Positions 24,433 to 42,695 are shown, numbered from the stretch's first letter. The stretch: 64,000 nucleotides of DNA from an uncultured Nitrospiraceae bacterium (GCA_963706325.1 CAVPLT010000001.1:320001-384000), one strand, 5' to 3'. A program made the numbers and translations. The notes: generated by a model not told the origin, from the letters alone.

Positions 24433-24798
24433 CTATCCGCCGTCGGATATCACGATCTGTTCATTCCGATCCAAACTGAACGACGGAAACAGATCGTGGG
24501 CATTGACGTAATTGCTGAGCCGAAGTTGGTCGTCGGCGTCCATTAGAATAGGGTCGACCCCCAACCTCGACTCGTTCGCCCAGCGTATCGTCGCAAGTCT
24601 TACCGAGAGGGGCTTAGACTCCCCTGGGATGTGCAGATGCAACTGGAGCAGATCCCCGGCTTGTAAGCCTTTGAGTCCGGTTCGTGACCAGCCTGGGATG
24701 GAGAGATCGAGCATCCGACCGTTCCAAATGAGGAGACCGTCTTCGGAACGCGATCCGGTGCACTCAACGATAAAGCGTGGGCGACTCTGTTGTTCCAT
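24433..24798 (-). CDS. PilZ domain protein (degenerate RxxxR)
   Basis: QQSRPRF, DLSIPGW, ATIRW....LGV. Confidence 0.72.
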   Translation of the reverse strand: MEQQSRPRFIVECTGSRSEDGLLIWNGRMLDLSIPGWSRTGLKGLQAGDLLQLHLHIPGESKPLSVRLATIRWANESRLGVDPILMDADDQLRLSNYVNAHDLFPSFSLDRNEQIVISDGG

Positions 24799-25015
24799 CC
24801 ATTTCCCCAAGCACACACTTGGGGAGAATATGAAAAACAATGGATACGCTGATAGTCCCCGAAAGTGGGGGATGAAAAGTCATGCTCTGTGTTCGGTTAC
24901 GAGGGGCCACGGAACCGACACGAATTACGATGGGTAGTACGACGAACCGGGTGAGGTTACGATCGAAAAATCGCGAACCACACACCACGAAGAGTTCGGA
25001 ATGGAAGAGCGATGG

Positions 25016-25363
25016 TCACGCCGCCGAGGGGGAATCCGATGCTGGCCCGAGCATCGAGTCCACAAACTTGCGGATGCGCGCTTCAGCAGCGGCGTTCATA
25101 TGTACAATTTCAAGACCAAACTGGCGTCCATTCACCCACTGCACCAGCACTCCTTCAATATCGATGGCTCTGGGCTGGTCAGGCAAAAAAACTCGCAAGG
25201 TAAGTTTCATGCCGACCGTCACAGGCTTGTCCCCCTCGATTCGCCACCCTTTTGCGGAAAGATCGCAGACCTCACCGGTCCCGACCAGGCCCTCTCCCAA
25301 GTAATAGAGAAAACAACTGACCGGCACACGCGAATGCGAACGATTTGAATGTGGTGTGGCCAT
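25016..25363 (-). CDS. PilZ domain protein
   Basis: RSHSR, DLSAKGWRI, VQWV....FGL. Confidence 0.85.
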   Translation of the reverse strand: MATPHSNRSHSRVPVSCFLYYLGEGLVGTGEVCDLSAKGWRIEGDKPVTVGMKLTLRVFLPDQPRAIDIEGVLVQWVNGRQFGLEIVHMNAAAEARIRKFVDSMLGPASDSPSAA

Positions 25364-25514
25364 TGGTTCGTGACAAGACAGTGCACTTAACGAGATCCAT
25401 CTCGGCTACACTCCAGTCTACCCATCTGAGGAGTGAAGGGCCAAGAATATTCCCTTTCCCACCATAACCGGTGGAAAATGGACCAGAGTCGCAGGTGGCA
25501 AGGAGAAATTGCGG

Positions 25515-25895
25515 CTAGATGAGGGCCGTCACAAATTGTTCGAGGCGAGCATGCTCCTCGGCCTTAATCGAACTGACCGTGATACCGAACTCTTGCCCAC
25601 GCGACCAACAGACAGTTGCGCGATCAATAAAAACCGTCGGATGCTGACCGGGAAGGAAGATGCAGAGCGTAACCACCATGCCAGGCTCAACCGGGTGTGT
25701 CCCATCGATACGCCAGCCGTTGAGCGACAAGTTCCAAGCGATGCCGGTTCCTTGGAACTCGTTACTGGAGTAATAGACTGAACACTGAACGGGAAAACGG
25801 CGGAATGACCGCACATGAAACCTGGTACCCGCAGCTGCGCCTGGATGAAGTGACGCCAATGAAGAAGCCTGTTTGCTGCCACTGGCCATTGTCAT
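25515..25895 (-). CDS. PilZ domain protein
   Basis: RSFRRF, NLSLNGWRI, ATVCWSRGQEFGI; start at ATG 25895 or 25889. Confidence 0.85.
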   Translation of the reverse strand: MTMASGSKQASSLASLHPGAAAGTRFHVRSFRRFPVQCSVYYSSNEFQGTGIAWNLSLNGWRIDGTHPVEPGMVVTLCIFLPGQHPTVFIDRATVCWSRGQEFGITVSSIKAEEHARLEQFVTALI

Positions 25896-25927
25896 TCCAC
25901 CAGAGTTGCGGTTGGGATGCCATGCGT

Positions 25928-25950
25928 TGGGGTGAGTGACGGGTTTCGAA
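25928..25950 (-). repeat. attR: 23-bp duplicate of the tRNA-His 3' end
   Basis: TGGGGTGAGTGACGGGTTTCGAA identical to 41396-41418. Confidence 0.93.
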
Positions 25951-26174
25951 TTGCTTCCGACACCCCTGCCCGCGTTGAAAATCAAGCACTTACATCTGCA
26001 AATTCGTGCAGAATCCCGCAAATCATACGCAAATCCGCAACCAGACGCAACCGCCCTTCCGATGGAGAAGGCGTCGCGCCTATGAATAAACGGAAGCCGT
26101 GATCGATGTGTCGCACTGATCAGCCGAACCCTCGAGTTGCGTAGTGATAATCACAAGGAGAGGTTGGTACAACT

Positions 26175-26786
26175 ATGAACAATGACGCGACGCGAACCTC
26201 AACTCTGACCACCAAAGAAGAAGCTTTCTGCCTAGCTGTCATGGCTGGGGGAAATCCGTCGAATGCTTACCGAATAGCATACAGACCCCAGCGGGCAAAG
26301 GCCAAAACCATTCATGAAATGACCTCGCGCCTCATGGCGAAACGCAAGCTTCGCGCAAGGTTGGCTGAGCTCATGCAGCCAGTGATTCAACAAGCGCGAA
26401 TAAGCCGCGAGGAATGGCTCGAACGAGTGGCTCGTATTTGCCTGGCCGATGTGCGCAAAATATTCGACTCGCATGGCAATCCGAAAGAAGTCACGGAACT
26501 CGACGAGAACGAGGCAGCGGCTATCGCAGCCTTCGAGTGCTGCGAAGACTTCGCCGGGAAGGGCGAGGAGCGCAGAGCGTGCGGTTATACACGAAGATTT
26601 AAGATGGCTGATAAGCTGAAAGCGTTGGAATTGTACGGCAAAGCCATGGGCTATTTTGTCGAACGTCAGGAGTTGACAAGAAAATCCGGCCCGCCGATTG
26701 TCCTCACAGTAAACTTTGTAGATCCGGAACACGCCCCAATGCTATCGGATGATCCCTCCAAGGCGTTGTCAGTCATTTCGCTTTGA
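26175..26786 (+). CDS. Terminase small subunit
   Basis: LT.KEEAFC......N.S.AYR.AY, SRLM....L.A.L.EL, RI..ADVRKIFD..G..K...ELD...A.AIA, DKLKALELYGK; AAGGAG RBS. Confidence 0.85.
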   Translation: MNNDATRTSTLTTKEEAFCLAVMAGGNPSNAYRIAYRPQRAKAKTIHEMTSRLMAKRKLRARLAELMQPVIQQARISREEWLERVARICLADVRKIFDSHGNPKEVTELDENEAAAIAAFECCEDFAGKGEERRACGYTRRFKMADKLKALELYGKAMGYFVERQELTRKSGPPIVLTVNFVDPEHAPMLSDDPSKALSVISL

Positions 26787-26852
26787 AAGTTCCTCGAAGG
26801 CGGGCAAATTTTCCGAATTGTCTTCCGGGCGCCCCTGATGCTCGCATAAGAG

Positions 26853-26871
26853 TGGTGTCCCCAACGGGATT
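26853..26871 (-). repeat. tRNA-Glu-like 3'-end fragment (att relic)
   Basis: Reverse complement AATCCCGTTGGGGACACCA matches a T-arm 3' half, acceptor strand and CCA. Confidence 0.6.
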
Positions 26872-26987
26872 TTCCAAAGGGGAAGCCAAAATATGTGCTT
26901 TTCGATCGATGTTATAGCATTCGCTGCGTAGGAATTGAGCTATTAACGACGGTCGTAAAGGGCAAGCAAGTGCCGTCTTAGAGGTGC

Positions 26988-27209
26988 CTACCGATCCGTT
27001 TGAAGCGTGACAGGGAGTCGGGAATGGCTGAACTCAGTCCCTTCCGCTGCTCGCAACGGTTCTGTAAAGCAATGTTCGAGTAGGCTCCCGGCGTAGTATT
27101 TCACTAACGCAAGCTCCTCACCGGTCAACGGTTCATCAAGCAGAGCTGGGGACAACAGGGTCTCAGAGACGACGATGTACTCGTGAACTTCTTTTCTCAG
27201 TGGATTCAT
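26988..27209 (-). CDS. Small hypothetical protein
   Basis: 73-aa ORF with AAGGGA RBS; amphipathic helical composition. Confidence 0.55.
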   Translation of the reverse strand: MNPLRKEVHEYIVVSETLLSPALLDEPLTGEELALVKYYAGSLLEHCFTEPLRAAEGTEFSHSRLPVTLQTDR

Positions 27210-27326
27210 GTCGGGTCCCTTTCATGGACATTGGATGCGAGCGGCTAATCGCCCTAACAATCGCGTGTAGGTTCAACACACGATTGGAGTTCCACTGCCG
27301 CAAATGGATATCCTCTCTGACGTGCC

Positions 27327-27587
27327 TCAATGGAAGGTGGAAGACGGGCAGCGTGAGAGACTTGGAACAGGCTTCAGTTCCGACAACAGAGAGGACATTC
27401 GCCGAACAACGCTCCCTTGAGTAGCCGTGATGCGGGCAGGTCGTGTCTCGCGTCTGTTGGCTCGCATCACCGGATCATCGATGCAGCCACAGTTCACGCA
27501 TCGCGTACTCGGCATTCTTTCTTGGACACCCTCTTTAGAAACCCACCAGTTCTGCATCAGCAAACCGCCACAGCGTCTACACAGCAT
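27327..27587 (-). CDS. Small Zn-ribbon protein (CxxC...CxxCG)
   Basis: CRRCGGLL...RCVNCG..DD; GAGGAGG RBS; paralog at 33988. Confidence 0.72.
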   Translation of the reverse strand: MLCRRCGGLLMQNWWVSKEGVQERMPSTRCVNCGCIDDPVMRANRRETRPARITATQGSVVRRMSSLLSELKPVPSLSRCPSSTFH

Positions 27588-28071
27588 GGTTGGTCCTCCT
27601 CATTCGGAGTCACAGTTCTCGGACACTTTCCACGAGATCGACGTCCTCATGCGTCTATTCTGGGCCGAAAGAGGCGAGGCGACTGATCAAAACGGACCAC
27701 TTCAGGAAATGTTGTCGAGAAAGACGAGCGAGCCATCAACCTCGGCAGAGAGCATTGAGTCATACATGATGGCATTACGAGGACTGCTGCGCACAACTCA
27801 TTCGATCACCCGAACGTTGATGATGTCCCTCCCCGAGAATGGGCGAGAGGTCATAGTCCAATCCATCATTTATCGCGTGTTTCATTGTCTGGCTCATACT
27901 TGGAGTCTTTGACGAAAGACAACTTCGCGATGCACAGGTGATCGGCCGAGCGTGACTCGTCTGTTGACTGTCAGGAGGACGGTGGCCATAACATGTGCGT
28001 GATATAAGGCAATGTATCGGGCAGGTAGCGAGGTAGTGCAGCAGTCTCTTCACCGGCCTACCAGGCAATCT

Positions 28072-28443
28072 TCAGTCCGTATCCAGGACTTCTTGGATGA
28101 CGGTCCGCAGTCCGTCCGGAGTCAGGGCTTCTTTGCGGATAAACGCACGAGCACCGGCAGTCAGAATGTCCGTTCTGATATCGTGAGTGATGTCGGCGGA
28201 CATGCCCACGACCACCGTGTCGGGTGAGAGACATCGAATCAGACGGGTGGCCTGGATGCCGTTCAGCTTTGGCATGTGAACATCCATGAGTACGACAGTA
28301 GGCCGGAGGGACTCGGCTAACTGCACCACAGCCTGCCCGTCGGCTGCCTCCCCCACGACCTTGACGGCACGCAGTCCGTGCAAGCCCGCCTCCAGGGTCC
28401 GCCTAATGAGGGCATCGTCATCAGCAATTATCACCGTGATCAT
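28072..28443 (-). CDS. Stand-alone NarL-type response regulator receiver domain
   Basis: IADDD, VVGEAADG, LMDVHMP.LNGI, GARAFIRK; no output domain. Confidence 0.85.
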   Translation of the reverse strand: MITVIIADDDALIRRTLEAGLHGLRAVKVVGEAADGQAVVQLAESLRPTVVLMDVHMPKLNGIQATRLIRCLSPDTVVVGMSADITHDIRTDILTAGARAFIRKEALTPDGLRTVIQEVLDTD

Positions 28444-28823
28444 AATCTGTGTCCTCAGGACAACTCTCTTGAGCGATCCGTGAGTGGTAAGGATGGAACG
28501 GTGGTGCTATTGCCGCTACTGGGTGAAGCCCTTGAAGGGGCGGTCTGCCTATGCCACGGTGAACGAAGAATTATCAGTACGCCAGTGAGGACACCAGGAT
28601 CGAGGTGAAAAGACATTCATCACTGGAATGGAGCGAGTCGTCGTACAATTTAGTGGTCGGCCGCCGGCCACGGATCTGGACGGAATATGATCGCCTTAAA
28701 AGGGCTTCTCAACTTGTTGCTATCAGGAAATACGAAGTGAGATTGATTGCCTGAAAAGCCTTGCTAGAAGCTGATTTACGGATCCCCGAGTGTGATGGGT
28801 TCGTATTAAGACACATCGGCAAT

Positions 28824-28858
28824 CGGGACCAAAACCGTGCCCAAAACCGTGACCAAAC
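28824..28858. repeat. Triple 12-bp tandem repeat
   Basis: CGGGACCAAAAC CGTGCCCAAAAC CGTGACCAAAC. Confidence 0.7.
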
Positions 28859-29515
28859 GATCTGCCTTCTTTCCAACTCCTTGGGTTGTAATCCCCCACC
28901 TTGGGTTCGCTTGGATTTTCGTCAAAGTAGTTACATGAGAACGGAGCTTCCCGTTCCATGTGCCGAGCCGCAACGGTCGCCTGAACAATCCGAGGGTGAT
29001 TTTTGGGCTAAGGATTTTGTTCCGTTCCTGATTTCACACTTGAAGTCACAATTAGACCAGACGGTGTCCGATTGGACAATTCAGGTTTTTGCAGAACATT
29101 TCTGAGGGAGACAGCCTCTCAGAGCCTTCCCCCTCGCACAGCCCTCGGCGCAAAAGCACTCAAGAAGCGGCGTTGATTGCAGCAGTGAAATATGAAAAAC
29201 TGGTGCGCTGTGTAGGCTGGCGGATGGTCACCGAGAGACAAGGTGTAGGCAGGATCACCGTTGGTGAGGTAGATCCAGACGACTACCATGCCGATACAAG
29301 GCGCTGCCGCAACGGTAATAGACCGACGATGTGTTGATCGATCTCGGCGGGCGCATCCATGAGCAAACAAACTGGAAGATTACCCAACCGAACAGCACCA
29401 TAGAGAAAGGTTTCAGTACCTATTTGACAAACTGGGGGACCTGTACCCTTTGAGGAGCGAAAATGAGTCACGGGATTTTGTATTCGCGTGGGAAGGGGGA
29501 ATAGTAAAAGTCGCT

Positions 29516-31084
29516 ATGCAAGTCCGGTTTTGGCCAGGAAATGTAACGGACGCTGGGTGCGTTCTGCTCGTCGGCCTTTTACTAGCAACCTGGTTCATAC
29601 CAGTCATGCCATTAGAGGCAAAAGGGGAAATCAACGCCATACAACGAGAAAATGCGCGCGCCGGGACATCGGCATGGCGTTTAACGAGCCCGGCATTGAA
29701 ACGTGAGATCGAAGGCTATGCCTCCCTCACCAGTGTAATTCGCGGACAGGAGATCGCGTTCTATATCCACACTCAGGAGAGTTCCTATAGCCTCACTGTC
29801 TACCGAATGGGCTGGTACGGTGGCGCCGGCGCGAGAGGGGTGTATGGTCCTGTGACCCTCCGAGGAGTATCGCAGCCGATGCCGTCGATGGATCCTCGGA
29901 CGGGGCTCGTCGAATGCGCATGGCAGGATCCGTATCGCCTGGTGGTCGGCGGAGAGAGTGATCAGGATGAATGGCTCAGCGGGATCTATCTCGCCAAATT
30001 GACCGCGGGCACCAGTGGCGCACAGGCGTATATCATTTTTGTCGTTCGGGATGAGCTACGTCCCTCTGACTTCCTATTCCAATCCAGCGTCACGACCTAC
30101 CAGGCCTATAATAATTGGGGCGGAAAATCGCTCTACGACTTCAACAGTGCGAGAGGGCGGGCCTACAAAGTGTCATTTAACCGGCCCTATGCGATCAGTA
30201 GCAACCCTGCCGCTGCTTATGGCAATGGCGCCGGAGACTTTTTGACCAACAATGCCGTGCCCCTTACGGATGCATCCTCACCGTCGGGTTGGGAATACAA
30301 TATGGTGCGATGGATGGAACGGCAGGGCTATGACGTCACCTATAGCACGAACATAGACACCCATGCGGATGCCGGGAGCCTGGAGCGCCATATGGGCTGG
30401 CTTTCGGTGGGACATGATGAGTATTGGACGTGGCAAATGCGCGCCCACGTTGAAGGCGCCAGGGACCGCGGAGTGCACCTCGGATTTTTCTCGGGCAACG
30501 TATGTTATTGGCAGATCCGGTTGGAACCGAGCGCCATCACGGGAGAGGCCGATCGCACCATGGTTTCGTACAAAGACGATGCGCCGATGCACGATCCCTA
30601 TGCTAGTGAAGAACTGGGGAAACGACATCTGATGACGGTGCGTTGGCGTGACCAACCAGTCAACCGGCCTGAGGAGTCGCTCATCGGTGTCATGTACGAC
30701 GGCAATCCCGTTGATGGCGATATTGTCATCACCACACCTGATCACTGGGCCATGAGCGGCACGGGGATTCGGGCAGGAGATAAACTCCCCCGCCTTCTGG
30801 GATATGAGGCCGACCGGGACTTTGGCCAGGCTCCGCCAGGCACCACAATTCTCGCCGAATCTCCCTATCTGTTTGAGGGTCACTCGCATGTGGCTCATAT
30901 GACAAGTTATACGCTAGCTAACGGAGCGACCGTGTTCGCGGCTGGTACGATTCAATGGAGCTGGGGGCTCGACGATTTCAATGTACCGCACCTACGAAAG
31001 TCCAGCCTCAATCCGAACGTGCAACGGATCACGGCGAATGTCCTTGCACGTTTTCGAGGAGATGCCGCATCCCCCGCTCGATAA
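29516..31084 (+). CDS. Secreted DUF6605 / N,N-dimethylformamidase beta-subunit-like protein
   Basis: IEGYAS.TSV, YRMGWYGGAGAR, TYQAYNNWGGKSLY, VSFNRPY, SVGHDEYW, GYEAD, FAAGTIQWSWGLD. Confidence 0.8.
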   Translation: MQVRFWPGNVTDAGCVLLVGLLLATWFIPVMPLEAKGEINAIQRENARAGTSAWRLTSPALKREIEGYASLTSVIRGQEIAFYIHTQESSYSLTVYRMGWYGGAGARGVYGPVTLRGVSQPMPSMDPRTGLVECAWQDPYRLVVGGESDQDEWLSGIYLAKLTAGTSGAQAYIIFVVRDELRPSDFLFQSSVTTYQAYNNWGGKSLYDFNSARGRAYKVSFNRPYAISSNPAAAYGNGAGDFLTNNAVPLTDASSPSGWEYNMVRWMERQGYDVTYSTNIDTHADAGSLERHMGWLSVGHDEYWTWQMRAHVEGARDRGVHLGFFSGNVCYWQIRLEPSAITGEADRTMVSYKDDAPMHDPYASEELGKRHLMTVRWRDQPVNRPEESLIGVMYDGNPVDGDIVITTPDHWAMSGTGIRAGDKLPRLLGYEADRDFGQAPPGTTILAESPYLFEGHSHVAHMTSYTLANGATVFAAGTIQWSWGLDDFNVPHLRKSSLNPNVQRITANVLARFRGDAASPAR

Positions 31085-31115
31085 TACCGTGTAACGGGTC
31101 TCTCTCAGGGGGTTT

Positions 31116-32168
31116 ATGAAAATTGCCCAGGTGGTTCATCTCGGCGTGAGTGTCCCTCCCGAAAAATATGGTGGGACGGAACGAGTGGTGTACCATCTGA
31201 CAGAAGAACTGGTCCGCCTCGGTCACGACGTCACTTTGTTCGGCAGCGGCGATTCGATCACGAGCGCGAAGCTGGTACCGATGTGTGACCGTGCGCTGAG
31301 CCATACGCCGTCCATAAACCGGGATGCGATGTTGTTCCGCATGCTCGAATATGTCTGGAACGTCTCTCATGAGTTCGAGATCATCCATTCTCATTTGGAC
31401 TTCGTCGGATTTTCCTTCGCCCGCCGTTCCGAAGTCCCTATCATCACCACCTTGCATGGGTATCTAGGTGCACCGGAGTTGGCTGAGGTCTATCGGGAGT
31501 ACTGGGAGATCCCGCTCGTGTCCATTTCCTATTCGCAACGGGCGCCCTTCCCCTCCAATAATTGGAAGGCGAATGTCTACCACGGGCTCCCGACCGATCT
31601 GTATCAATTTCATCCGAGGTCAGAAGGATACCTGGCGTTCGTGGGGAGGATGTCGCCGGAGAAATCCCCGGATGTCGCGATCCGGATCGCGCAACAACTG
31701 CGCATGCCATTGCGGATGGCGGCCAAAGTGGACCCAGTGGACCAGGAATACTTCGACACCGAGATCGTGCCTCTCCTTGCAGATCCGCTGATCCAATTTA
31801 TCGGGGAGATCACGGATAGTGAGAAGGCCGAGTTTCTCGGGAATGCATGCGCGGCGCTCTGCCCCTATCGTCCCGAGTCATTCGGCTTGGTGCTGATCGA
31901 GGCGCTGGCCTGCGGCACTCCAGTCGTGACTTATCGCCATGGGTCGTTTCCCGAGATCATCGACCACGAATTAACAGGATTTCTCTGCACAAATGAGCAG
32001 GAGATGGTGGAAGCCGTCCGCCGCATCGGCGAGATCGATCGAGGTCGATGCCGCAGGACCTTCGAAGACCGCTTCACCGCTCAGCGCATGACCAAAGATT
32101 ATGTGCAACTGTATGAGAACATGGTTCAGGAAGCGGCGGTAAAAACACTCGCCGGCTCGAACGAGTGA
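31116..32168 (+). CDS. Glycosyltransferase family 4
   Basis: PP..YGGTERVV..L, GHDVTLF, GRMSPEK, ESFGLVLIEALACGTPV. Confidence 0.92.
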   Translation: MKIAQVVHLGVSVPPEKYGGTERVVYHLTEELVRLGHDVTLFGSGDSITSAKLVPMCDRALSHTPSINRDAMLFRMLEYVWNVSHEFEIIHSHLDFVGFSFARRSEVPIITTLHGYLGAPELAEVYREYWEIPLVSISYSQRAPFPSNNWKANVYHGLPTDLYQFHPRSEGYLAFVGRMSPEKSPDVAIRIAQQLRMPLRMAAKVDPVDQEYFDTEIVPLLADPLIQFIGEITDSEKAEFLGNACAALCPYRPESFGLVLIEALACGTPVVTYRHGSFPEIIDHELTGFLCTNEQEMVEAVRRIGEIDRGRCRRTFEDRFTAQRMTKDYVQLYENMVQEAAVKTLAGSNE

Positions 32169-32480
32169 TGCTGATCCTGATCAGGGAGACGGCCGAGGAA
32201 GCCAGTAGCACAGCGGCGGATCTGGTCGGTCGGGCGATCAGGAAGAATCCGGCCCTGAGGCCGGCCTTGCCGCGGGTAAAACGCCGATCGGACTGTACCG
32301 GAAGCTGGTCGAACTGCATCAGACTGACGATCTCGATTTCTCCGCCGTTCACCTCTTCAGCCACGATGACTTGGTTGGGCTGCCGAGTCACAGCCCGAAC
32401 AGTTACGGTGCCTTCTTTCGCCGGCATCTTATTGACCATATCCCCTTCGAGCCAGCCCACTTCCATTTCTTGAGGGGTGA
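32168..32480 (+). pseudogene. nagB: Glucosamine-6-phosphate deaminase, frameshifted and truncated
   Basis: AADLV..AIRKNP, then after a frameshift near 32260 GLAAGKTPIGLYRKLVELH...LDFS.V..F..D..VGL....PNSY..F...HL.DHI; TGATG coupling to the GT4 gene. Confidence 0.75.
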
Positions 32481-32553
32481 GACCAAGGAGAACTCTTTGT
32501 CGTTTTTACATGCGAAATGCAGAGCGGCCACCGCCGGGCAAAGGGACTACTTG

Positions 32554-33048
32554 CTATGTTTGTGAGCCGCGGTGTGCCGCCTCGATTGTCGCGATGTCGA
32601 TCTTTTTCATGTGCATCATCGCATCAAAGGCGCGCTTGGCGGCGGCGGGATTGGGATCGGTCCACGCTTTCATCAGGGCCACCGGCGTAATCTGCCATGA
32701 CACCCCCCATTTGTCTCGGCACCAGCCGCACTCACTCTCTTCGCCGCCGTTGCCGACGATCGCGGTCCAGTACCGATCGGTTTCGGCCTGGTCCTCTGTG
32801 GCGACCTGAAACGAGAAGGCTTCATTGTGCTTGAACTCCGGACCGCCATTGAGCCCGAGGCAGGGGATTCCCATTACACTAAACTCGACGGTCAGCACAT
32901 CCCCCTTTTTGCCAGACGGATAGTTTCCCGGTGCCGTATGCACCGCACCCACAGAGGAATTGGGAAAGGTCTTCGCGTAAAACCGCGCCGCGTCCTCGGC
33001 GTCGCCATCATACCAAAGGCAAATCGTGTTCTTGGCTGGCTTGGACAT
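32554..33048 (-). CDS. VOC family protein (PhnB/3-dmu-9 type)
   Basis: CLWYD..AE.AA.FY, LNGGP.F...EAFS, DQAETDRYW, CGWC.DKWGVSWQI, MKKIDIA. Confidence 0.9.
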   Translation of the reverse strand: MSKPAKNTICLWYDGDAEDAARFYAKTFPNSSVGAVHTAPGNYPSGKKGDVLTVEFSVMGIPCLGLNGGPEFKHNEAFSFQVATEDQAETDRYWTAIVGNGGEESECGWCRDKWGVSWQITPVALMKAWTDPNPAAAKRAFDAMMHMKKIDIATIEAAHRGSQT

Positions 33049-33987
33049 CTCGCTCCTCCATTGTAGTTCTCGATCGAACGTGAATCAGAAGGCAACTCTA
33101 GGGCAGTGACGCCGTTAGGTGCCATGTTCTGCATGTGCGGGAGTTCTGGAAAGGCAGGAACGGCGGACTTATGGTTCCGGAATCTGAGAGGGCTTAACCA
33201 CTACCTCGGTGCATTCCGCCTCGATGAAGGCCGCCGTTGCATCGCGTCTCTCTGAGCGTTTGCTCAACCCCCGTGATTCCTTTATCCCGAAAATCCACAA
33301 TCTCTTTATCTATTACAGATAGGTTCGCAAAGGATTGTCGGCACTTACGGTCTGCCAATGCCCGCAGATGTTGTTTCACGATCGCATGTTGTTTGCTATG
33401 AGCGGCCTCGCGAATCGAGTTCAGCCCGGCCGTGTCGCCCAAGGCCTTCGTAGCCTCCAATAACTCTGATCAAAGACGGCCTTCAATTGTTCGACACTGT
33501 GAGCTCGCGCAGGAGGCGAATTGAACAGCAGGACACCTATGCATACATAGAAAAAGTACTGCGCTCTCATGGGCAAGCCGCCTTTCGTGTCGCGATCGCG
33601 GGCCGAGTATATCGTATTTGGGTTCCTATTGTACCCAACCTCGACGGTCCGGGTCCCGGACGACAGACGGTAACCCTCTCTGGTGGCCTTTCGCCCTCAT
33701 TACCGAGCCGGGCTCTTGAGGGCCGTGGGTCACCGCTCTGCATTCCCACGGCGGCACCGGTCGCGGATCAATTCATCCGTCTCTTTCCCTCCCTGCGCCT
33801 GACCGTCCACTCCTAAGCGCGAGTCCTTCAAGTACCCCAAAACCATCAGCCGAAGCCAGCCTTCCGCCTTGTAACGCCATGGCCCTCTGCATGGAAGTTT
33901 CCCTCCTAAGGAGTACTGCTTTCCGGTCTATCGCATTCGCGCCCACGGGATAAGCTTTAAGTATCACATGTCACAAGGAGGCGATGC

Positions 33988-34194
33988 ATGAGCTGTCCAC
34001 GATGCGAAGGGTTGATGGTGGGGGATTTGAGCTGTGATCTTGAAGAGACACAAGGAATGTGGGTGACCACGACCCGGTGCATGAATTGCGGCCATGTGAC
34101 AGACGCCACAATCGAGAAGCATCGCATGCAATCGAGCGGACATGGGGGAATGGGGCAACCCCTGCCAGTGATGGCACAGGCTCAGAATGCTTAG
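33988..34194 (+). CDS. Small Zn-ribbon protein
   Basis: CPRCEGLM...RCMNCGH..D; AAGGAGG RBS. Confidence 0.75.
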   Translation: MSCPRCEGLMVGDLSCDLEETQGMWVTTTRCMNCGHVTDATIEKHRMQSSGHGGMGQPLPVMAQAQNA

Positions 34195-34350
34195 GGCACT
34201 GCAGTGACGAAGGCGTGTTCTGGCTGTGGACACTCTACCAACGCGGTACATCCTCGGTGTCATGACCGGTAGAAGGTTCACTGTTACAGGTAGTGTGTTA
34301 ACTGGCGACCACACGAGATCCCACATCGCCTGTCGCTGAGGAGGACCATC

Positions 34351-34845
34351 ATGTTGCACCGAACTGTGCTCTGTCTCGCGTTGGGCGCCCTCCTGACCGG
34401 AGGACTCGAAGGCTGTACAATGATGAAGAGCGGCTCATCGACGCTGTTACCGAGTAGTGCCTATTTTGCCGCCGATGCAGGGGAATTACCCCTGCTGCAA
34501 GTCATTGCCCAGGCGCAAGACACCCGCCTCAAAAGTTGCTACAAAGGCCCGGCCTGTGAAGAGGCGTACTATACCCGTGGGTTGGTCGCCCTGTTTGAAA
34601 ACCGTGCCGATGCCATTCGACTGTTTCAGGAGCTGCACACGGCAATGCCGAAGAGCCGCTATGACGGCTCCACCATTGGCTGGTTGAACCTCTTACAGGA
34701 TCCGTCGCGGACCTCCAGTTCCACCCAGGCGTTACGGGCCCAGCTGAAGCAGGAAATACTGCGCACGCTCTTAGGGCGCCCCGACCTGAGGACCGCACGA
34801 AGTCTGGACGAACACGACGTGCGTGTTGCAGAGCTCAGCCGGTAG
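34351..34845 (+). CDS. Hypothetical lipoprotein with a TPR-like helix pair
   Basis: LEGC lipobox; AYYTRGLVALFE....A...FQEL....P.S.Y; GAGGAGG RBS. Confidence 0.7.
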   Translation: MLHRTVLCLALGALLTGGLEGCTMMKSGSSTLLPSSAYFAADAGELPLLQVIAQAQDTRLKSCYKGPACEEAYYTRGLVALFENRADAIRLFQELHTAMPKSRYDGSTIGWLNLLQDPSRTSSSTQALRAQLKQEILRTLLGRPDLRTARSLDEHDVRVAELSR

Positions 34846-34960
34846 TCACGTTTCATGGCGCGGGGACATGTGAGGCTTGAGAGTGTGCCGAACGCTGAGG
34901 TTGAAACATGGAGCTGGAAACGCCAAGGATTGGACACACGTCTGCTGACATGACGACGCC

Positions 34961-35461
34961 CTACTGTCTGACGGCTTTCCGCTCTGTGCCGGAGGCATGC
35001 TGTCGCCACTCCCACGGCGAGACTGAGTAAGGAGCGACCCATAGCCCACGCTTCGCTTCCCGTGCCTGCCGTTCCAGCTCCCCCAATCGAAAATCCTTCG
35101 AGTACTTTCGAAACCACCACGCCAAGCCCGCATTGATGAGTTCTTGATTGAGGCTCCGCCCGTCCGGCAAGAGGACTTCCGTCAGGCGCCGGCCATAACG
35201 GTCGCGCCGACCTCCTACACCGTGACATCTTGCCCGAAGGCCAGTTCTGACGTGTATTCGTTCGCTCGTGTGCCGAAGGGCTGGCGCTTCTCAGGGCAAT
35301 CGATGCCTAAGAGGCGAATTTGCACGGCCTTGCCCTCATACATCACGCGAAGGGAGTCGCCACCAATGACGCCCACCACTTTCCCTACAAACTAAGCTTG
35401 GGCTAGGATGGGCCCCCAAGACAAACATCAGTAGCCATGTGAGCGATTTCAAGGACACCAT
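34961..35461 (-). pseudogene. Thermonuclease (SNase) family pseudogene
   Basis: GKVVGV..GDSL.V, IRL.GIDCPEK.QPFG, LNQEL..AGLAW, AR..KRGLW; TAG at 35215-35217 and frameshifts near 35390 and 35200. Confidence 0.85.
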
Positions 35462-35542
35462 GCTGGAAGGATTATATAAAGTGTCTCGCACCAGTTGCAT
35501 CTCTCCTTTCGTCCTGGAAAGCGCTTGGTGGAAGGAGGAAGC

Positions 35543-36916
35543 ATGTATTTGCATGCGGTATTCGCCCTAATCGCGCTACTAATCGGATGCGGCGAGCTCG
35601 ATCGTACGAAAGGCAGGGGCAGCGTGCGACCTTATGCGGGCGTCGGGGACCAGAGCGCCGATTATTCCGTTGCTGTGGAAGGGCAAAATGTTGCGGTTAA
35701 TGCGTGGAGTCATGCCGGCAGAATAGCCCACTATGCTCATTTTGAGTTTACTGGAACAGTGACCATTGAAATCACCAATAAGCTCGGGGATTTCGGATCA
35801 GCGAGCATAAGTCCAAAACGGTTTTCCATTTCCCCCACGATTTCCGGAAGCAAGGCCATATTCACCCTGAGCACTCCTAGAAAACTGGTTATCTATGCCG
35901 GCGAAACCAGGCTTTTCATTTTTGCCGAAGGCCCGCAAACAACTCCATCGCAGTCGGACCTGCTCCCCGGCACACTCAACACCGACTACGCGCTAAGCTA
36001 CGCTGGGGAGACAGCCCCCACTTCCACGAGCGGCCCCCTCACGTTTCTTTCAAACCCCCTGAAGGAGGCGAGGATGGTCGGTCGTGGAACCTATCAACGG
36101 GGCGACACCTTTGAGCTCTACAACATGGACAACTTCAGAATGGAAGGCGTGGTTTATCGCCAAACATCCGCAAATGCATGGGCAATGATACCGCGATACC
36201 TTACAAACTCGGTTCTTTCAAACGTCAAGATACTGTCCCAGTTCGGCACCATGAACACTGACGGCATCGATGTGGATAACAGCCACCATCTGTTGATTGA
36301 AGATGTCTTCGTCTTCTCCGGAGACGACTCCATTTGTCTGAAAGGGATGCCGTTTCGTTTCCCCTATGGCCCTGCGCCGACCTACGGCGTTCCTCAGCCG
36401 GCCGTGCCTGTTCATGACATCACCGTTCGCAATGCCGTGCTTCTTTCGACTTGGAATGCCATGCAGTTCGGCCCTGAGGACGCCTCTGATATTTACAACG
36501 TTTCATTTGAAAACATCGATGTCCTCGAAGCTTACTCGGGCATTTCGGTTTCGCCGGTGACGAGCCTGCAGAATATTCACTACAACAACGTCAGAATCGA
36601 GAGTACATGGTCACAATTATTCATGAACATTGAGCATGAAAATACCACCAAGCAAGGGACCATGTATGTGGACAATCTGATCGTTGACCAACCTAAAGGG
36701 ATTTCCATCACCAGCTACCCCCAGAGGCTGGACATCTATTTCACCAATCTCACGGTCGCAGGCAGGCCTATCGCCAGTCTGGATGATTTGCGGCAAGTTG
36801 CAGGGAGCGGGAACGTCATTGTGAGTGGAGATGTCGAACTCCATTTTGAGAACAATCTTCCGCCGTTACCCGTTGCCGATACAACCCTATCCGCCGCCCC
36901 GAATGGAAGCGATTAA
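35543..36916 (+). CDS. Lipoprotein with a pectin-lyase-fold GH28-like domain
   Basis: LIGC lipobox; NTDGIDV, GDDSICLK; beta-helix repeats; AAGGAGG RBS. Confidence 0.72.
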   Translation: MYLHAVFALIALLIGCGELDRTKGRGSVRPYAGVGDQSADYSVAVEGQNVAVNAWSHAGRIAHYAHFEFTGTVTIEITNKLGDFGSASISPKRFSISPTISGSKAIFTLSTPRKLVIYAGETRLFIFAEGPQTTPSQSDLLPGTLNTDYALSYAGETAPTSTSGPLTFLSNPLKEARMVGRGTYQRGDTFELYNMDNFRMEGVVYRQTSANAWAMIPRYLTNSVLSNVKILSQFGTMNTDGIDVDNSHHLLIEDVFVFSGDDSICLKGMPFRFPYGPAPTYGVPQPAVPVHDITVRNAVLLSTWNAMQFGPEDASDIYNVSFENIDVLEAYSGISVSPVTSLQNIHYNNVRIESTWSQLFMNIEHENTTKQGTMYVDNLIVDQPKGISITSYPQRLDIYFTNLTVAGRPIASLDDLRQVAGSGNVIVSGDVELHFENNLPPLPVADTTLSAAPNGSD

Positions 36917-37369
36917 CAGGGATGAATGTAAATCACGTGCGTAAAAAAAGGCAGGCCGATGAAACCGGACAACTCAGTGACGCCAGAAGTTGATGGCGTC
37001 TGCTCCCTCATCTCTCTCCCGCCGAAAGGAGCGTGGGAATTAACTCCACTAGTTGCTCCGTGAGGAGCCGCACGGCCTCTGCCACTCGCCTCTGCTTACA
37101 GTTTTCAGGCGGGAAGGGCGAGACCACGTGGGATTACTGTTCAAACTATCGATCCAGGCCGCTTCATTTCCGGGCGGTCATCCATCCAAGGCAACGGTGT
37201 CTAGCACAGAGCTACTGGGGCCAACGCAGTGAGAAGAAAAAGCCAACAATCTTCCCTCAGCGGAAAGGCCCATGACTTGAGCTCGCGCTCGGGTCAGGAC
37301 CGCAGAAGTGCGACTAAGAGGCACACAGTCACATACTGATAGGGCCACATGACTCACCGGCCGTGCGGA

Positions 37370-38353
37370 CTAATGGAGTTGCTCCAGAGTCATACGCGAT
37401 TTCTGCGCATGGAGGACCGTTGTCCGATGTGGGCGCCCCTTGGGGCGATACAGTGCGTTGGGATGGCCTACAATCTGAACCGTGGCAAACCCTAGGCGTT
37501 TCAGCATCTGCTCCAGGCATACCTTGTTCGGATACCACCAGGTGCGCCAGTCGAGTGTGGGCGTGGCACCTCCAGCATATACCATACTAGGTCGGGCATG
37601 ATCGTCCTCATCCGCCAGGTGCTCGGTGATGACAAAGGTGCCTCGGCAGAAGGGAGCTAATACGGCGAGCACCTTGAGCGGGGCGAAGGTATGTAACAAG
37701 ACGTCGCCGAGAAAGATCAGGTCAAATGGCTCCGCCCCTAATTTCTGAGTGGTTAACTCATACACCGTGGAGTACACGCGTTGAACCTGAGACTGTAGAA
37801 GCTTGTGGCACAGTTGAAAGGGTCCGTCCAAGTGATAGTGATACACGGCGTCCACAGTGTTGACGCGATGCTGCTCCATTAAGCCTTTTAGGGTGCGATC
37901 TCGATCTTCACCAGTTGGCATATCCCAGTCAGTGATGGCGGGCAGCTCAACAGAGACGACGCGGGCCCCGCGTCTTTCAAATTCGAACGCAAAAAAGCCT
38001 GTTGCAGACCCGACGTCCAAGACGTTCATGCCCTTCATGGACACTGGGAAGTGGTAGGCCGCCAAGCTCGCTCGATAATCGAAATCACCAGGAGTAACTA
38101 GGCCGTTGCCCAAGTCGATGGTGTGGTACCAGTAATACTTCTCGATATCGTCATGGCCCAAGCCACGGGCCTTTTGGTGGAAGTCCCGCAGATTCTGCTC
38201 ATAGTCCCGTACGTGCTGCTGGCTCACGCGGTCACAACTCGGGTCAGGCGCTGAGCTGGTACGGTTTTTCTGTACCGCACTCCCGAGCGTATCCCACAAA
38301 CCCGTGAAGCCCTTGTCTGCAATAACTCGTGCGATCTTTTGGTGAAGCAGCAT
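37370..38353 (-). CDS. Class I SAM-dependent methyltransferase (DUF1698/CmoB-like)
   Basis: WYHTIDLG.G.VTPG, VLDVGSATGFFAFEFERRGA, FDLIFLGDVL.H, WW.PN. Confidence 0.82.
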   Translation of the reverse strand: MLLHQKIARVIADKGFTGLWDTLGSAVQKNRTSSAPDPSCDRVSQQHVRDYEQNLRDFHQKARGLGHDDIEKYYWYHTIDLGNGLVTPGDFDYRASLAAYHFPVSMKGMNVLDVGSATGFFAFEFERRGARVVSVELPAITDWDMPTGEDRDRTLKGLMEQHRVNTVDAVYHYHLDGPFQLCHKLLQSQVQRVYSTVYELTTQKLGAEPFDLIFLGDVLLHTFAPLKVLAVLAPFCRGTFVITEHLADEDDHARPSMVYAGGATPTLDWRTWWYPNKVCLEQMLKRLGFATVQIVGHPNALYRPKGRPHRTTVLHAQKSRMTLEQLH

Positions 38354-39591
38354 AAACTCTCCTATATGCGACCATTCCAGGGGGCCGAAGCGCTCTGGAG
38401 GGGCTCAACCGGAAGGCGCGAGGTGTATGGATAAGCATACACTAACTTTTTGGCGTTAGAATCGCAATGAGGAAAGTGTTGGCACCCACCAGCTCATCGC
38501 CCAGAGGGCCTCTCCGGGGGAACCCCCCTTTAACCCTGTCCGCGAGTGGTCGCCGCTGTCTGCAGGTTGTCAGCATCTGGGAACCGATACACCGCGAAGG
38601 CAGCGACCGCCACGCCGAAGAAGAACCCAACGCCTATCGGCCACATCACGCCTTTCATGGGATCGTCGGATGTCGTGATCACAGATAGGGAGCGGGTCGT
38701 CGTCATAATTCGTAGCCGGCCGCCAGCCACGGATCGGACGGTGTTGGGTTTTCAACACGCGAAGGCCGCTAGGGGCTCCTTATCGGTCGTTTATGTCGCC
38801 TAGGTTGTTCAGCAGAATGTGAGGAAGAAGACTCGATTAGGCCGCGCCATGATTCGCCGAGTTCTTTCGCTTAATTCGTTTATTTCGTAAAGGGAAGCGG
38901 TACCGGCGGCCGGGGGATCCGGGCTGGGTAGGGTTCTATCTCGCGAAGGCCGGGGAAGGGGTAGTTCCGTGGAATCTCCCCTATCCCAGCACCTCCATGT
39001 CGAGACACTCTGTCGGATATGTCGGGTTCGTTGGAGGAGAGATTGTCCGACATTTGACTCATAGAGCGGCTTCTGTCGGGTTTGTCGGGTCCTCGCTAGT
39101 ATGAATCGGCCGAAATTCAATGAAGCCTGGCCATGGAGATGTGTGTAGCTAGCGCATGGGTACCCTAAAGGCCAGGGTGGCCTGCCGACGAAGGCGGAGG
39201 GGTGTTCCTGCCAGGAAGGCAGCAAATCATCTCAGAGGGCAGAATATGTTGACCTTCGAGCCTGCTACGACCGACCCCGAAGACACGGACAACCCACGGA
39301 CAGTGCCTTAGACTCTTCAAGAGAGACAATGCCTTACGAACGCCCGTTGGGTTCATACCCCAACGGTATTCTTCCATCAGTTCTTGCCCAAGACCACGTT
39401 AGTGTTTCATTAGCAGGAAAGGAGTACGTAGAGACAAATCCATGGAAAATAAAGACTTGAAATTAGATGAATGTCGAAGGGGGACTTCGGCAACTGCTAA
39501 CCTCCCCAAATTTCGGGCAGCGCGAATTTGCGCGACGCGGGCGCAAAGGAAGGGTGCCCGTGGAGGTGGCCTCAGAGCGGCTGGGGCCTAA

Positions 39592-39890
39592 GCGAATTTA
39601 AATCTTGCTGAAGTGCACGCTGCTGCCTCGATGCAGCAGGAGGCCGCGGCGAAAATAGGAAAGTTACTGCACGGACAACACTGGGAAGGGATCGTGCTTG
39701 ATAGCCAATCGCGAATAAGATGGAGGTGGAAGACCGAAACAGGACTCCCTATTAGCGGGTCCGCAAAAGAAGAGCCAACCGGAGAGAACGTGCTGGCATT
39801 TAGCCTCATTTAGACTATGGCTATGTCTTTAAACCAGACGAGTATTGAACTTATGGTTTTCGACGAGGAGCATGGACATGAACTCCAGGG
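39592..39890 (+). pseudogene. Possible C-terminal remnant of an SbcC/SMC-type ABC ATPase
   Basis: GENVLAFSLI*TMAMSLNQTSIELMVFDE resembles a degenerate signature and Walker B region; internal stop. Confidence 0.4.
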
Positions 39891-40064
39891 GTCCAATGGC
39901 TGGCTATGCACAATTCGCTACCCCCTAGTTAGTTGTGGTCTGGTCGATGCTGGTACCTACAGAACTCCTTATTAACGTCTGAAATTTCTCCTCGAATTTA
40001 TCACGAACTCGCTCCTAGGGGCTTGCCTACTACTATCGACTCTCTAGTCACATCACTATAGTGA

Positions 40065-40400
40065 ATGACTGAATTACAAAAATTACCGCTTGTTTCCCTG
40101 GCCGAGGTGCAGGCCAGTTCCGAAGCCGAGGGACATCCCATTCTCCTGGCATTTGACGACGGTACGGGGCCAGGGGGGACGTACTGGAAGGCTGGTGATC
40201 CGGGGGAGTAGACGATTACCGTGACGTTCCGCGAGCCCTTCACACTTGTCCAGGTCACCATGGAAGTGGAAGAACGAGAGGGTTGCACGCACTCAGGAAG
40301 TGCAGCTCTCCTCGTCGGCGGATGGAGGACAGACGTATCGCGAACTCGTTCGTCAGGAATTCAATTTTAGCCCGGATGGGGCAACGTGGGAGAAAGAAAC
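40065..40400 (+). pseudogene. Discoidin/F5/8-type-C-like carbohydrate-binding protein pseudogene
   Basis: SSEAEGHPI..AFD...GPGGT.W.A..PGE*TI...F; RTQEVQLS.S.DGG.TYREL.RQEFNFSP.GATWE.E; TAG at 40209-40211 and a frameshift near 40280. Confidence 0.65.
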
Positions 40401-41453
40401 AAACGAGGAAGCGAGGATCACTCTACCCTGGCGGATTACACCAAGATCCTCAATCGTGACATCGTCCCCTCGTTACGAGGTCTCGACCTGCAGGACATCA
40501 CCCGCGAGAAGGTCAAAGCCCTGGCCCTGGCTGGCCTCCAAAAAGGACAATCGGCCAAAACCGTACAGAACATCGTCCGATGCCTCAGCAGCCTCCTGAG
40601 TCATGCTGTTGAGGATGGACATGTGACGGCGAACACTGCTCTCAAGTCAGGAAAGTTTCTGCCGAAGGTCGGCAAGCGTCACCATATCGCCCCTCTCACA
40701 CGGGAAGAGGTCGCCCTGCTGATCGAGACCGCCAAGGCGAAACTTCCCCGCTACTATCCCTTATTCCTGTGTGCGGTCCGGACCGGCTTACGCATGGGCG
40801 AGCTGCTAGCGCTCCAGTGGGGTGATATCGACTGGCAAGGCCGGTTCATTGAGGTGCAGCGCAATTTCACACACTGGAAGCTAACGACCCCAAAGAGTGG
40901 CGAGAGTCGTCGCGTCGATATGTCGCGAGAGCTGGGCCAAACATTGAAGGATTTACGGACCGAGCAACAGATCGAAGCCGCGGCGCGTGGATGGAAGGAT
41001 CTTCCACCGTGGGTCTTCTGTAGCGAAGTGGGCGGGCTCCTCCACCCACACAATCTACGGGACCGCGTGTTTTATGGATTGCTGACCAAAGCTGGGCTTA
41101 GGAAGGTCCGGTTTCATGATTTGCGGCACACCTTCGCCTCCCTGCTGCTCCAGCAAGGTGAGAGCCTCGTGTATGTGAAGGAACAAATGGGGCACTCGTC
41201 GATTCAGGTGACCGTGGATCTCTACGGGCATCTGATTCCGGGCGGGAATAAACAGGCGGTGGATCGACTCGATACGCCGATGGAAACGAGCCGCTTTGAG
41301 GGCTATTCCGCAACCCCGGCGCAACCAGCCCCACCCGTGATGAGGCCTACGTCGTCAGATTCTGTGGAGTATTCAGTAGTTACGGGGAGAGGGCGTGGGG
41401 TGAGTGACGGGTTTCGAACCCGCGACCTCCGGATCCACAATCCGGCGCTCTAA
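40386..41453 (+). CDS. Tyrosine recombinase/integrase, N-terminus apparently truncated; ORF reads through the att core into the antisense tRNA
   Basis: TGLRMGELLAL (R), TPKSG (K), FHDLRHT (HxxR), MGHSS (H), DLYGH (Y). Confidence 0.92.
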   Translation: MGERNKRGSEDHSTLADYTKILNRDIVPSLRGLDLQDITREKVKALALAGLQKGQSAKTVQNIVRCLSSLLSHAVEDGHVTANTALKSGKFLPKVGKRHHIAPLTREEVALLIETAKAKLPRYYPLFLCAVRTGLRMGELLALQWGDIDWQGRFIEVQRNFTHWKLTTPKSGESRRVDMSRELGQTLKDLRTEQQIEAAARGWKDLPPWVFCSEVGGLLHPHNLRDRVFYGLLTKAGLRKVRFHDLRHTFASLLLQQGESLVYVKEQMGHSSIQVTVDLYGHLIPGGNKQAVDRLDTPMETSRFEGYSATPAQPAPPVMRPTSSDSVEYSVVTGRGRGVSDGFRTRDLRIHNPAL

Positions 41454-41473
41454 CCAACTGAGCTACACCCACC
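41396..41473 (-). tRNA. tRNA-His (GTG)
   Basis: G-1 GTGGGTG acceptor, CCGGA-TTGTGGA-TCCGG anticodon arm, GGTTCGAAACC T-arm, C73 discriminator and encoded CCA. Confidence 0.97.
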
Positions 41474-41584
41474 ACGCAAGGGCGCACAGCGAACGCGCAT
41501 CTTAACAAACCGCGAAGAACAGTCGCAACCACCTTGCGGCCAACCGGACTGATGCCGGCCGAGCGCTGTACCGAGATGGTCGCG

Positions 41585-42304
41585 TCACCCTCGTCGGTTG
41601 TCGAAGGCGTCCTGCATTTCGGCTAAGATAGCGGCGGCGGCGAAGGGGGGATCTTCGGCGTCGCGAATGGGACGGCCGATCACCAGGTAATCGGCGCCGG
41701 CGGCAATGGTTTGAGTGGGTGTGGTCACGCGTGCATGGTCATCGGTCCCTTTTCCGGCCGGTCTGACCCCTGGCGTAACGATAAGCAGATCGGACCCTAC
41801 CTTGGCACGAATGGCCTGCGGCTCTTCTCCGGAAGCGACCACTCCGTCACAGCCCACCTCCGCAGCCAATGTAGCTCTGGCCGTCACGAGATCCTGGACA
41901 GTCCGCTGAATGCCCATATCGCGTAAATCCTGCCCATCGAAATTGGTGAGCACCGTGACGGCTAATAACTTGAGCGCGGATTGGCCTCGTCCCTGCACCG
42001 CCGCAATCAAGGCTTTTCGATTCGCATGAACGGTCAGGAATGTTGCACCCATGGCAGCCACCCGAGTCGTGGCGCGCCGGACGGTCTCTTCGATGTCTAG
42101 AAACTTGAGATCGAGAAACACCCGTTTCCCACGATCAACCAGTCTTCGCACAACATCCGGTCCCGCCACCGTATAGAGCTCCAAGCCGACTTTCACAAAT
42201 CGAACCTGCTCTCCCATACGATCGACTAACGCCTCGGCCTCCACGGCGGAAGGGACATCCAGCGCCACAATCAAACGGTCTCGTGCGTCAATCCTCGTGA
42301 TCAT
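41585..42304 (-). CDS. pyrF: Orotidine-5'-phosphate decarboxylase
   Basis: LIVALD, KVGLEL, FLDLKFLDI..TV, VTPGVR, GADYLVIGRPI. Confidence 0.96.
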   Translation of the reverse strand: MITRIDARDRLIVALDVPSAVEAEALVDRMGEQVRFVKVGLELYTVAGPDVVRRLVDRGKRVFLDLKFLDIEETVRRATTRVAAMGATFLTVHANRKALIAAVQGRGQSALKLLAVTVLTNFDGQDLRDMGIQRTVQDLVTARATLAAEVGCDGVVASGEEPQAIRAKVGSDLLIVTPGVRPAGKGTDDHARVTTPTQTIAAGADYLVIGRPIRDAEDPPFAAAAILAEMQDAFDNRRG

Positions 42305-42419
42305 ACCTACGCCACGACTACCGAGACTCCCCGGAAGCCCAGCTGATTCCTTTCCGTCTCCTTGACCTGTCTTCTCGTCCTATGCTACAAACTCAGGCTT
42401 TGAACGTAGGAGAATCCGT

Positions 42420-42695
42420 ATGCCTGTTGTCCACAAGTCCACGATTCGCCGTGCCCGCCAATCTGAGAAACGCCGGTTGCGCAATCGCGCTACGCTCAGT
42501 TCAGTCAGAAGTGTCCTTCGCAAGGTCCAGGAGGCCATCGCTGCCAAGAAGCCGGATGAAGCGAAGGCCACCTTGCGAGCTGCCACTGCAGCACTGAGCA
42601 AAGCGGTGACTAAGGGTGTCCTGAAGCCCAATACGGCCTCGCGTCGCGTGTCCCGGCTCACCGTGCGGGTGAACGCCCTCACCGCTTCCGCGTAA
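42420..42695 (+). CDS. rpsT: 30S ribosomal protein S20
   Basis: KSTIRRARQSEKRRLRNR, KAVTKGVLKPNTASRRVSRL. Confidence 0.95.
   Translation: MPVVHKSTIRRARQSEKRRLRNRATLSSVRSVLRKVQEAIAAKKPDEAKATLRAATAALSKAVTKGVLKPNTASRRVSRLTVRVNALTASA

Follow-up and report, generated by a model that had tools for sequence, protein, structure and literature searches.

Why should an integrase gene run, without a stop codon, across the attachment site at which its own product recombines? This question is raised by a tyrosine integrase gene in a 64,000-nucleotide stretch of DNA from an uncultured Nitrospiraceae bacterium (GCA_963706325.1 CAVPLT010000001.1:320001-384000; hereafter the window, in whose numbering coordinates are given, on the plus strand unless stated), where it lies at one end of a satellite-like island of 15.5 kb, now decayed, inserted at tRNA-His. 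The island is bounded by an exact 23-bp direct repeat (25928-25950 and 41396-41418, 100% identity) that corresponds to the tRNA-His 3' end, from the CCA end through the T-loop. The intact tRNA-His(GTG) gene occupies 41396-41472 on the minus strand, its first 23 nt as read on the plus strand being the attL core, and the copy at 25928-25950, placed by its identity to the other repeat and by the position of the tRNA, is the far-end core (attR), a displaced duplicate of the tRNA's final 23 nt. The integrase (Int) open reading frame (ORF; 40386-41453) has no stop upstream of the core, reads GVSDGFR across it and terminates after TRDLRIHNPAL, the antisense of tRNA-His coding for this 11-residue integrated-state tail and its stop. 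At the far end an ORF at 25917-26102 continues GVSDGFR, in the identical register, with 50 different residues. An earlier note had seen here an integrase whose C-terminus would be swapped by recombination between the repeats, and this description is borne out: the frame is open at both repeats, the registers match, and a core within the int ORF with an alternative C-terminus at the other end is a layout like that of myxophage Mx8. The chance of a single open 50-codon frame is ~13% at the base composition of the window, and the window alone is therefore weak proof of a kept frame; as relatives show the frame open too, the opening is not due to chance.

The arrangement of these relatives suggests an answer. 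Five intact two-ended elements (L109, L110, L111, L115 and L116) measure 12-16 kb and carry rep, dnaB, an HTH_17 gene and int in a run that leads into the core, while at their other end core and arm are followed by TSCPD and/or terS nearby. Wherever xis, rep, dnaB and a full-length int were recovered on a single stretch (5/5 elements), the attP-side frame is open and its stop overlaps a start codon. From such comparisons, we consider it moderately probable that the Int frame is kept open so that ribosomes can, after excision, reach the first gene at the other end of the island. An integrated, intact relative holds rep, dnaB, xis, int and core at one end and core, arm and TSCPD/terS at the other; circularization would join these ends into one operon, with a single transcript running from xis through int and attP to the left-end genes, along which a ribosome would cross ~100 codons of attP and re-initiate on the first left-end gene. 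Because circularization would make one operon, excision would switch on the left-end TSCPD/packaging genes by translational coupling. Integration would cut the link and leave Int to end harmlessly in the antisense tRNA, and the C-terminal swap, which is real, is likely a by-product. If such coupling is true, it gives the satellite a simple means of holding back late-gene expression before excision. More tentatively, a widespread satellite family of Nitrospirota and Acidobacteriota may translate its whole attP (integration host factor (IHF) sites, core and both arms, ~100 junk codons in all) as a ribosome bridge, with excision completing an operon and turning on TSCPD and packaging genes.

Read-through of the core is common among relatives. 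In 65 of the 80 best-ranking genome loci a tRNA follows closely downstream, the targeted genes being those for His, Met, Arg, Lys, Thr and Leu tRNAs, read in three frames; the core is read through in 53 of these 65, contains a stop in two and is preceded by one in ten, so that homologous integrases mostly do not stop before it. In the best 120 of 4656 homologous proteins, a His-type core is crossed in 83, 15 stop within the core, 20 are without a core and two are without the C-terminus. Both samples lean towards read-through because their ranking followed resemblance to a query that itself reads through. The overlap between these integrases and the tRNA is genuine.

Left ends were retrieved with a nucleotide pattern instead of a protein query, giving 26 matches in 401 genomes, 29 in metagenomes, where the pattern demanded intact arm repeats, and two more. 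The family arm at standard spacing is carried by 45, which reduce to 38 after collapse at 95% identity; nine matches whose arms were incomplete or of another type were left out, together with L104 and L105, and other arm types (an RSGDF-type at tRNA-His and four at tRNA-Met) were excluded as other integrase families. Of these 38 left ends, 35 keep the Int frame open along the P' arm. Moreover, the first Int-frame stop beyond the arm shares bases with a start codon in 30/38, against 15 and 12 for the other frames, and with a start led by a Shine-Dalgarno sequence in 26/38, against 0 and 5. Independent tblastn searches placed a TSCPD gene in 18 of 39 left ends; the distance between the core and its start is 185, 182, 170 or 149 nt, each of them 2 mod 3, and this start overlaps the Int stop in 17 of the 18. 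Three independent length changes that are all in phase have a chance of ~1 in 27. A similar arrangement is found in a clade at tRNA-Met whose Int is only ~44% identical: among its 19 core matches, ten carry the family arm (two of the ten being near-identical) and all ten are open, eight of them overlapping a start and two having an ATG 3-4 nt further on. The left end usually begins with a free-standing TSCPD-domain gene (PF12637), as it does past the P' arm in L115 and L116; this gene is often decayed.

These observations have to be set against a neutral account, in which an ancestral int lost its stop, T-poor arms by chance lacked stops in two frames and relatives inherited this state, the frame ending at the first TGA, which is often that of the next gene's ATGA. 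This account is considered unlikely, although the composition of the arms favours it: their T content is 16-18% and frame +1 is open through the P' arm in 33/38 left ends, almost as often as the Int frame, so an A/C-rich arm explains much of the openness. Selection was assessed with disjoint pairs of extant sequences (19 pairs of 38 for the P' arm, nine pairs of 19 for the P arm), this pairing being the sole phylogenetic correction. One-sided stops in the P' arm number 2 against 8.5 expected in the Int frame (P ~0.01), whilst the other frames give 5 against 6.8 and 28 against 16.6; in the P arm the Int frame has 3 against 9.8 expected (P 0.012) and no other frame is depleted. The pairwise deficit is thus limited to the Int frame on both arms, which counts against neutrality, as do the three arm-to-TSCPD length changes, all multiples of three, and the recurrence of the stop/start overlap in a remote clade whose target tRNA and downstream ORFs are different. 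Early stops, in addition, sit in elements without replication and packaging genes: two-ended elements L002, L008, L010 and L013, which stop early, have no match to rep, dnaB, terS or TSCPD, a pattern that fits decay.

A number of results weigh against a frame kept for coupling, and several of them favour the neutral account directly. The column-shuffle null was dropped as a selection test, as it found frame +1 depleted (5 vs 11.4) much like the Int frame (4 vs 11.8), and since it failed to split the two the pairwise deficit is only suggestive. The sequences are related, not independent, so the P values are overstated, and the P-arm sample was likewise ranked by similarity to the read-through query. 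Within the Met clade, frame +1 is open in 9/9 and the stop deficit (0 vs 1.2, P 0.29) falls short of significance. The clade at tRNA-Arg has lost the read-through, six of its seven left ends stopping ahead of the arm repeats; the left ends of L104 and L105 are frameshifted; and L002 and L008 have a full-length int and yet an attP tail of 19 residues. The 15 proteins of 120 with in-core stops would have neither swap nor coupling there, and where the T-loop supplies a TGA, Int stops in the core in both states. In the genome of the window itself, a second same-family island (G000:C2:103900-122520, minus strand), inserted at tRNA-Ser(TGA), whose 5' end it repeats over 42 bp, has a frame that closes 5 codons past the core, and in the window the Int-frame stop past the P' arm overlaps the GTG (as GTGA) of an ORF that is a 6-codon stub, the terS start lying 72 nt beyond. 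To these is added the outcome of a search through contigs of eight runs over 24500-43000, which yielded neither a 41418-to-25951 joint nor an empty-site joint, a negative that is uninformative because contigs drop rare forms.

Since the description of Mx8, an attP inside int has been taken as a way to alter the enzyme, and the earlier note proposed accordingly that the hydrophobic -PAL and basic -KRKP ends might switch Int activity or stability. The attP-within-int layout is established for Mx8 (and Mx9), where integration creates a new, shorter 3' end (PMC6070905, PMC4701971, PMC4383910). A switch of this type, with the attP-form and integrated tails differing in activity or half-life through a degron or a DNA or Int contact, is attractive insofar as the C-terminal swap is geometrically certain, stops are depleted on both arms, and in Mx8 a 112-residue end is replaced by 13 residues with lower activity (PMC4701971). 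A difference in length or in terminal residues could, furthermore, act without sequence conservation, and the region past the arm has a dN/dS (ratio of nonsynonymous to synonymous substitution rates) of 0.66, in a subset chosen for openness. The signal in the sequences examined nevertheless points elsewhere. Both swapped tails (~50-55 vs 11 residues) lie far beyond the catalytic tyrosine, and dN/dS across the arms is 0.8-1.0 (P' arm 0.98, P arm 0.81), compared with 0.03 for the catalytic-domain control, with variability in the P' arm flat over codon positions. Of the expectation that both tails would be open and conserved, then, the openness holds and the conservation of amino acids does not: the arm-encoded tails are under no amino-acid constraint, and what is kept is openness and an end point.

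The residues that do appear invariant in the tails coincide with the IHF consensus and with CGCAACC repeats, that is, with DNA. In the window the P' arm (25950-26102), which would supply the 50-codon tail following GVSDGFR in the excised circle, contains an exact match to what we take to be the IHF consensus (WATCAANNNNTTR, 25980-25992, coding for the tail residues NQAL), a sequence with 103 exact matches across the 4.2-Mb genome, and four arm-type repeats of the form CGCAA(AT/CC) (26017-26052, coding for RKSATRRN), which are putative Int binding sites. The IHF site recurs at the window offset with 0-2 mismatches in 38/38 relatives, and at several arm-repeat codons the synonymous positions are also invariant in 38/38. 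The P arm (41274-41395), made up of the ~41 codons of the int ORF that follow the last conserved motif (DRLD), carries two arm repeats, at 41309 and 41320, as well as an IHF-like site at 41370 (two mismatches), and the paired CGCAACC repeat is present four times in the genome, once at each end of the window island and of the C2 island. Conserved-looking Int tails such as SATPAQP and RKSATSRNQ would consequently, for annotators, be DNA binding sites translated through.

The ends of the tails speak against a protein switch in the same sense. Of 35 long attP tails, 28 are net acidic over their final 10 residues, a consequence of the downstream Shine-Dalgarno sequence, and the terminal residues vary with it; the basic -KRKP of the window is an atypical, private variant. 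The integrated tail is dictated by the antisense of the target tRNA, in three different frames, and its end changes with the target (-PAL, -QAL, -PSL, -ALSN or -FGL). The -PAL end is unlike the -ALAA that ends the host tmRNA tag (ANQELALAA; this tag, like the homologs, indicates a Nitrospira host), and the tail is predicted to be disordered, residues 368-424 having a confidence score (pLDDT) <50 in a model of P0001, a full-length homolog. The proposal based on tail chemistry is accordingly not supported, and a change in Int function as the reason for the layout is regarded as improbable. Mx8 and the window family share a tyrosine integrase with a coding sequence that spans attP, by layout. They differ in that Mx8 exchanges 112 residues for 13 with a change in activity, whereas here ~50-55 are exchanged for 11 in arm DNA without amino-acid constraint, and in that the attP-form stop of the window family overlaps the next gene's start. 

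Two further systems invite comparison with the proposed coupling. In mycobacteriophage BPs, attP lies in the repressor gene and integration removes an ssrA-like degradation tag from the C-terminus (PMC3694055). In common with BPs, attP is inside a coding sequence and the C-terminus is altered on integration; in contrast, the gene here is int, and neither tail bears a conserved tag, the integrated ends being those listed above and the attP ends variable and mostly acidic. In ICEKp1 and ICEclc, the joining of ends on excision forms a state-dependent, transcriptional promoter switch that controls int (PMC13023037). These share with the present proposal the rewiring of expression across the att site when ends join, but the link proposed here would be translational, from int to the gene beyond attP. 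Promoter scans of both island ends found nothing, and no literature on this satellite family or on translational coupling across attP was found among titles and abstract openings, most subscription papers being beyond reach.

Excised or attP forms were also sought more widely. Viral contigs gave 0 matches to a pattern of core plus non-tRNA sequence, and their seven Int relatives include none of the attP form (three at tRNA-Met, one His tail at a contig end, one cut short and two distant). Among long proteins, four short matches to the attP tail and no full-length attP-form Int were obtained, which is weak evidence. Natural P-core-P' joints do exist, in P0123 (an ORF joining the Int end, core and P' tail) and in L155, L185 and L188; these are explained by tandem integration as well as by circles.

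The copy in the window is itself a relic. Its integrase (40386-41453; PF00589, E=1.1e-24) is truncated at the 5' end, with 355 residues compared with 424 in homologs; alignment to P0001 begins at residue 78, so the first 77 residues are gone, and a search for the missing N-terminus (residues 1-82) found no close match anywhere in the genome (best E 0.66). The catalytic R, HxxR and Y are all present, and are invariant across 60 homologs; the modelled fold of a homolog matches Tn1549 Int and lambda Int. The P0001 model has a confident domain of three strands plus a helix at residues 1-50, absent from the window copy, which from its fold would be an arm-binding architecture. Joined to the truncated int is a broken fragment of an unrelated gene (40060-40400), recognized by stops and frameshifts in three-frame translation and by a tblastx match to a second copy on contig C2. 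An assembly artefact as the source of the truncation is ruled out, the junction being spanned by contigs in runs X2, X3, X4, X5 and X11 from three studies. In sister populations, the int frame is broken by loss of a single nucleotide at 41094, ahead of both HxxR and the tyrosine; the deletion is carried by runs X3, X4 and X9 and by protein P0042, and a loose end there in X15 is compatible with it. The window copy is very probably unable to make active integrase, and is ill suited to experiments.

Besides int, the sole satellite core gene remaining in the window island is that for the small terminase subunit (terS, 26175-26786; PF03592, E=6.6e-16), and the island yields no match to xis, rep or dnaB, so that it is presumably dead as an autonomous element. 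The interval 26787-40059 (given without strand) holds cargo: a response regulator, a DMFA2-like protein, a glycosyltransferase, a PF06983 protein, split nuclease fragments, a GH28-like protein and a methyltransferase. The staphylococcal-nuclease-like gene is in two pieces (34961-35379), a further sign of decay. Three tandem PilZ-domain genes (24433-26021) lie beside the far att site, and this PilZ flank recurs in several relatives.

The intact relatives resemble phage-inducible chromosomal islands, as these are defined in a published account (PMC10085698), in their 12-16 kb size, integrase, HTH_17 excisionase-like gene, DnaB replication module and, mostly, TerS, capsid genes lying outside the comparison; in the five, Int, the helix-turn-helix gene and DnaB are found in 5/5 and TerS matches in 4/5. 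The window copy differs in keeping just terS and a truncated int.

Other islands of the same or neighbouring kinds were encountered. The frameshifted int of the C2 island crosses the core in the sense direction, and that island holds the second copy of the int-fused gene fragment. A decayed integrase of the same family at G000:C4:1014600-1015200 has a frame that continues into what looks like a tRNA-Thr-type remnant, read in antisense. L107 (9.3 kb) and L108 (5.8 kb) are tRNA-His islands with att cores and no integrase match, suggesting non-autonomous elements, and L107 retains P-arm sequence. A second, unrelated integrase family also uses the tRNA-His core (L094, L096, L098 and L099; L119, L120 and L125), where tandem islands are present in several genomes. 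Finally, long low-complexity proteins are encoded near the left end of three intact relatives (L109:787-2280, L110:763-2406 and L116:1408-2526); the two tested have no Pfam match, and, as a guess, they are possibly virion ejection proteins.

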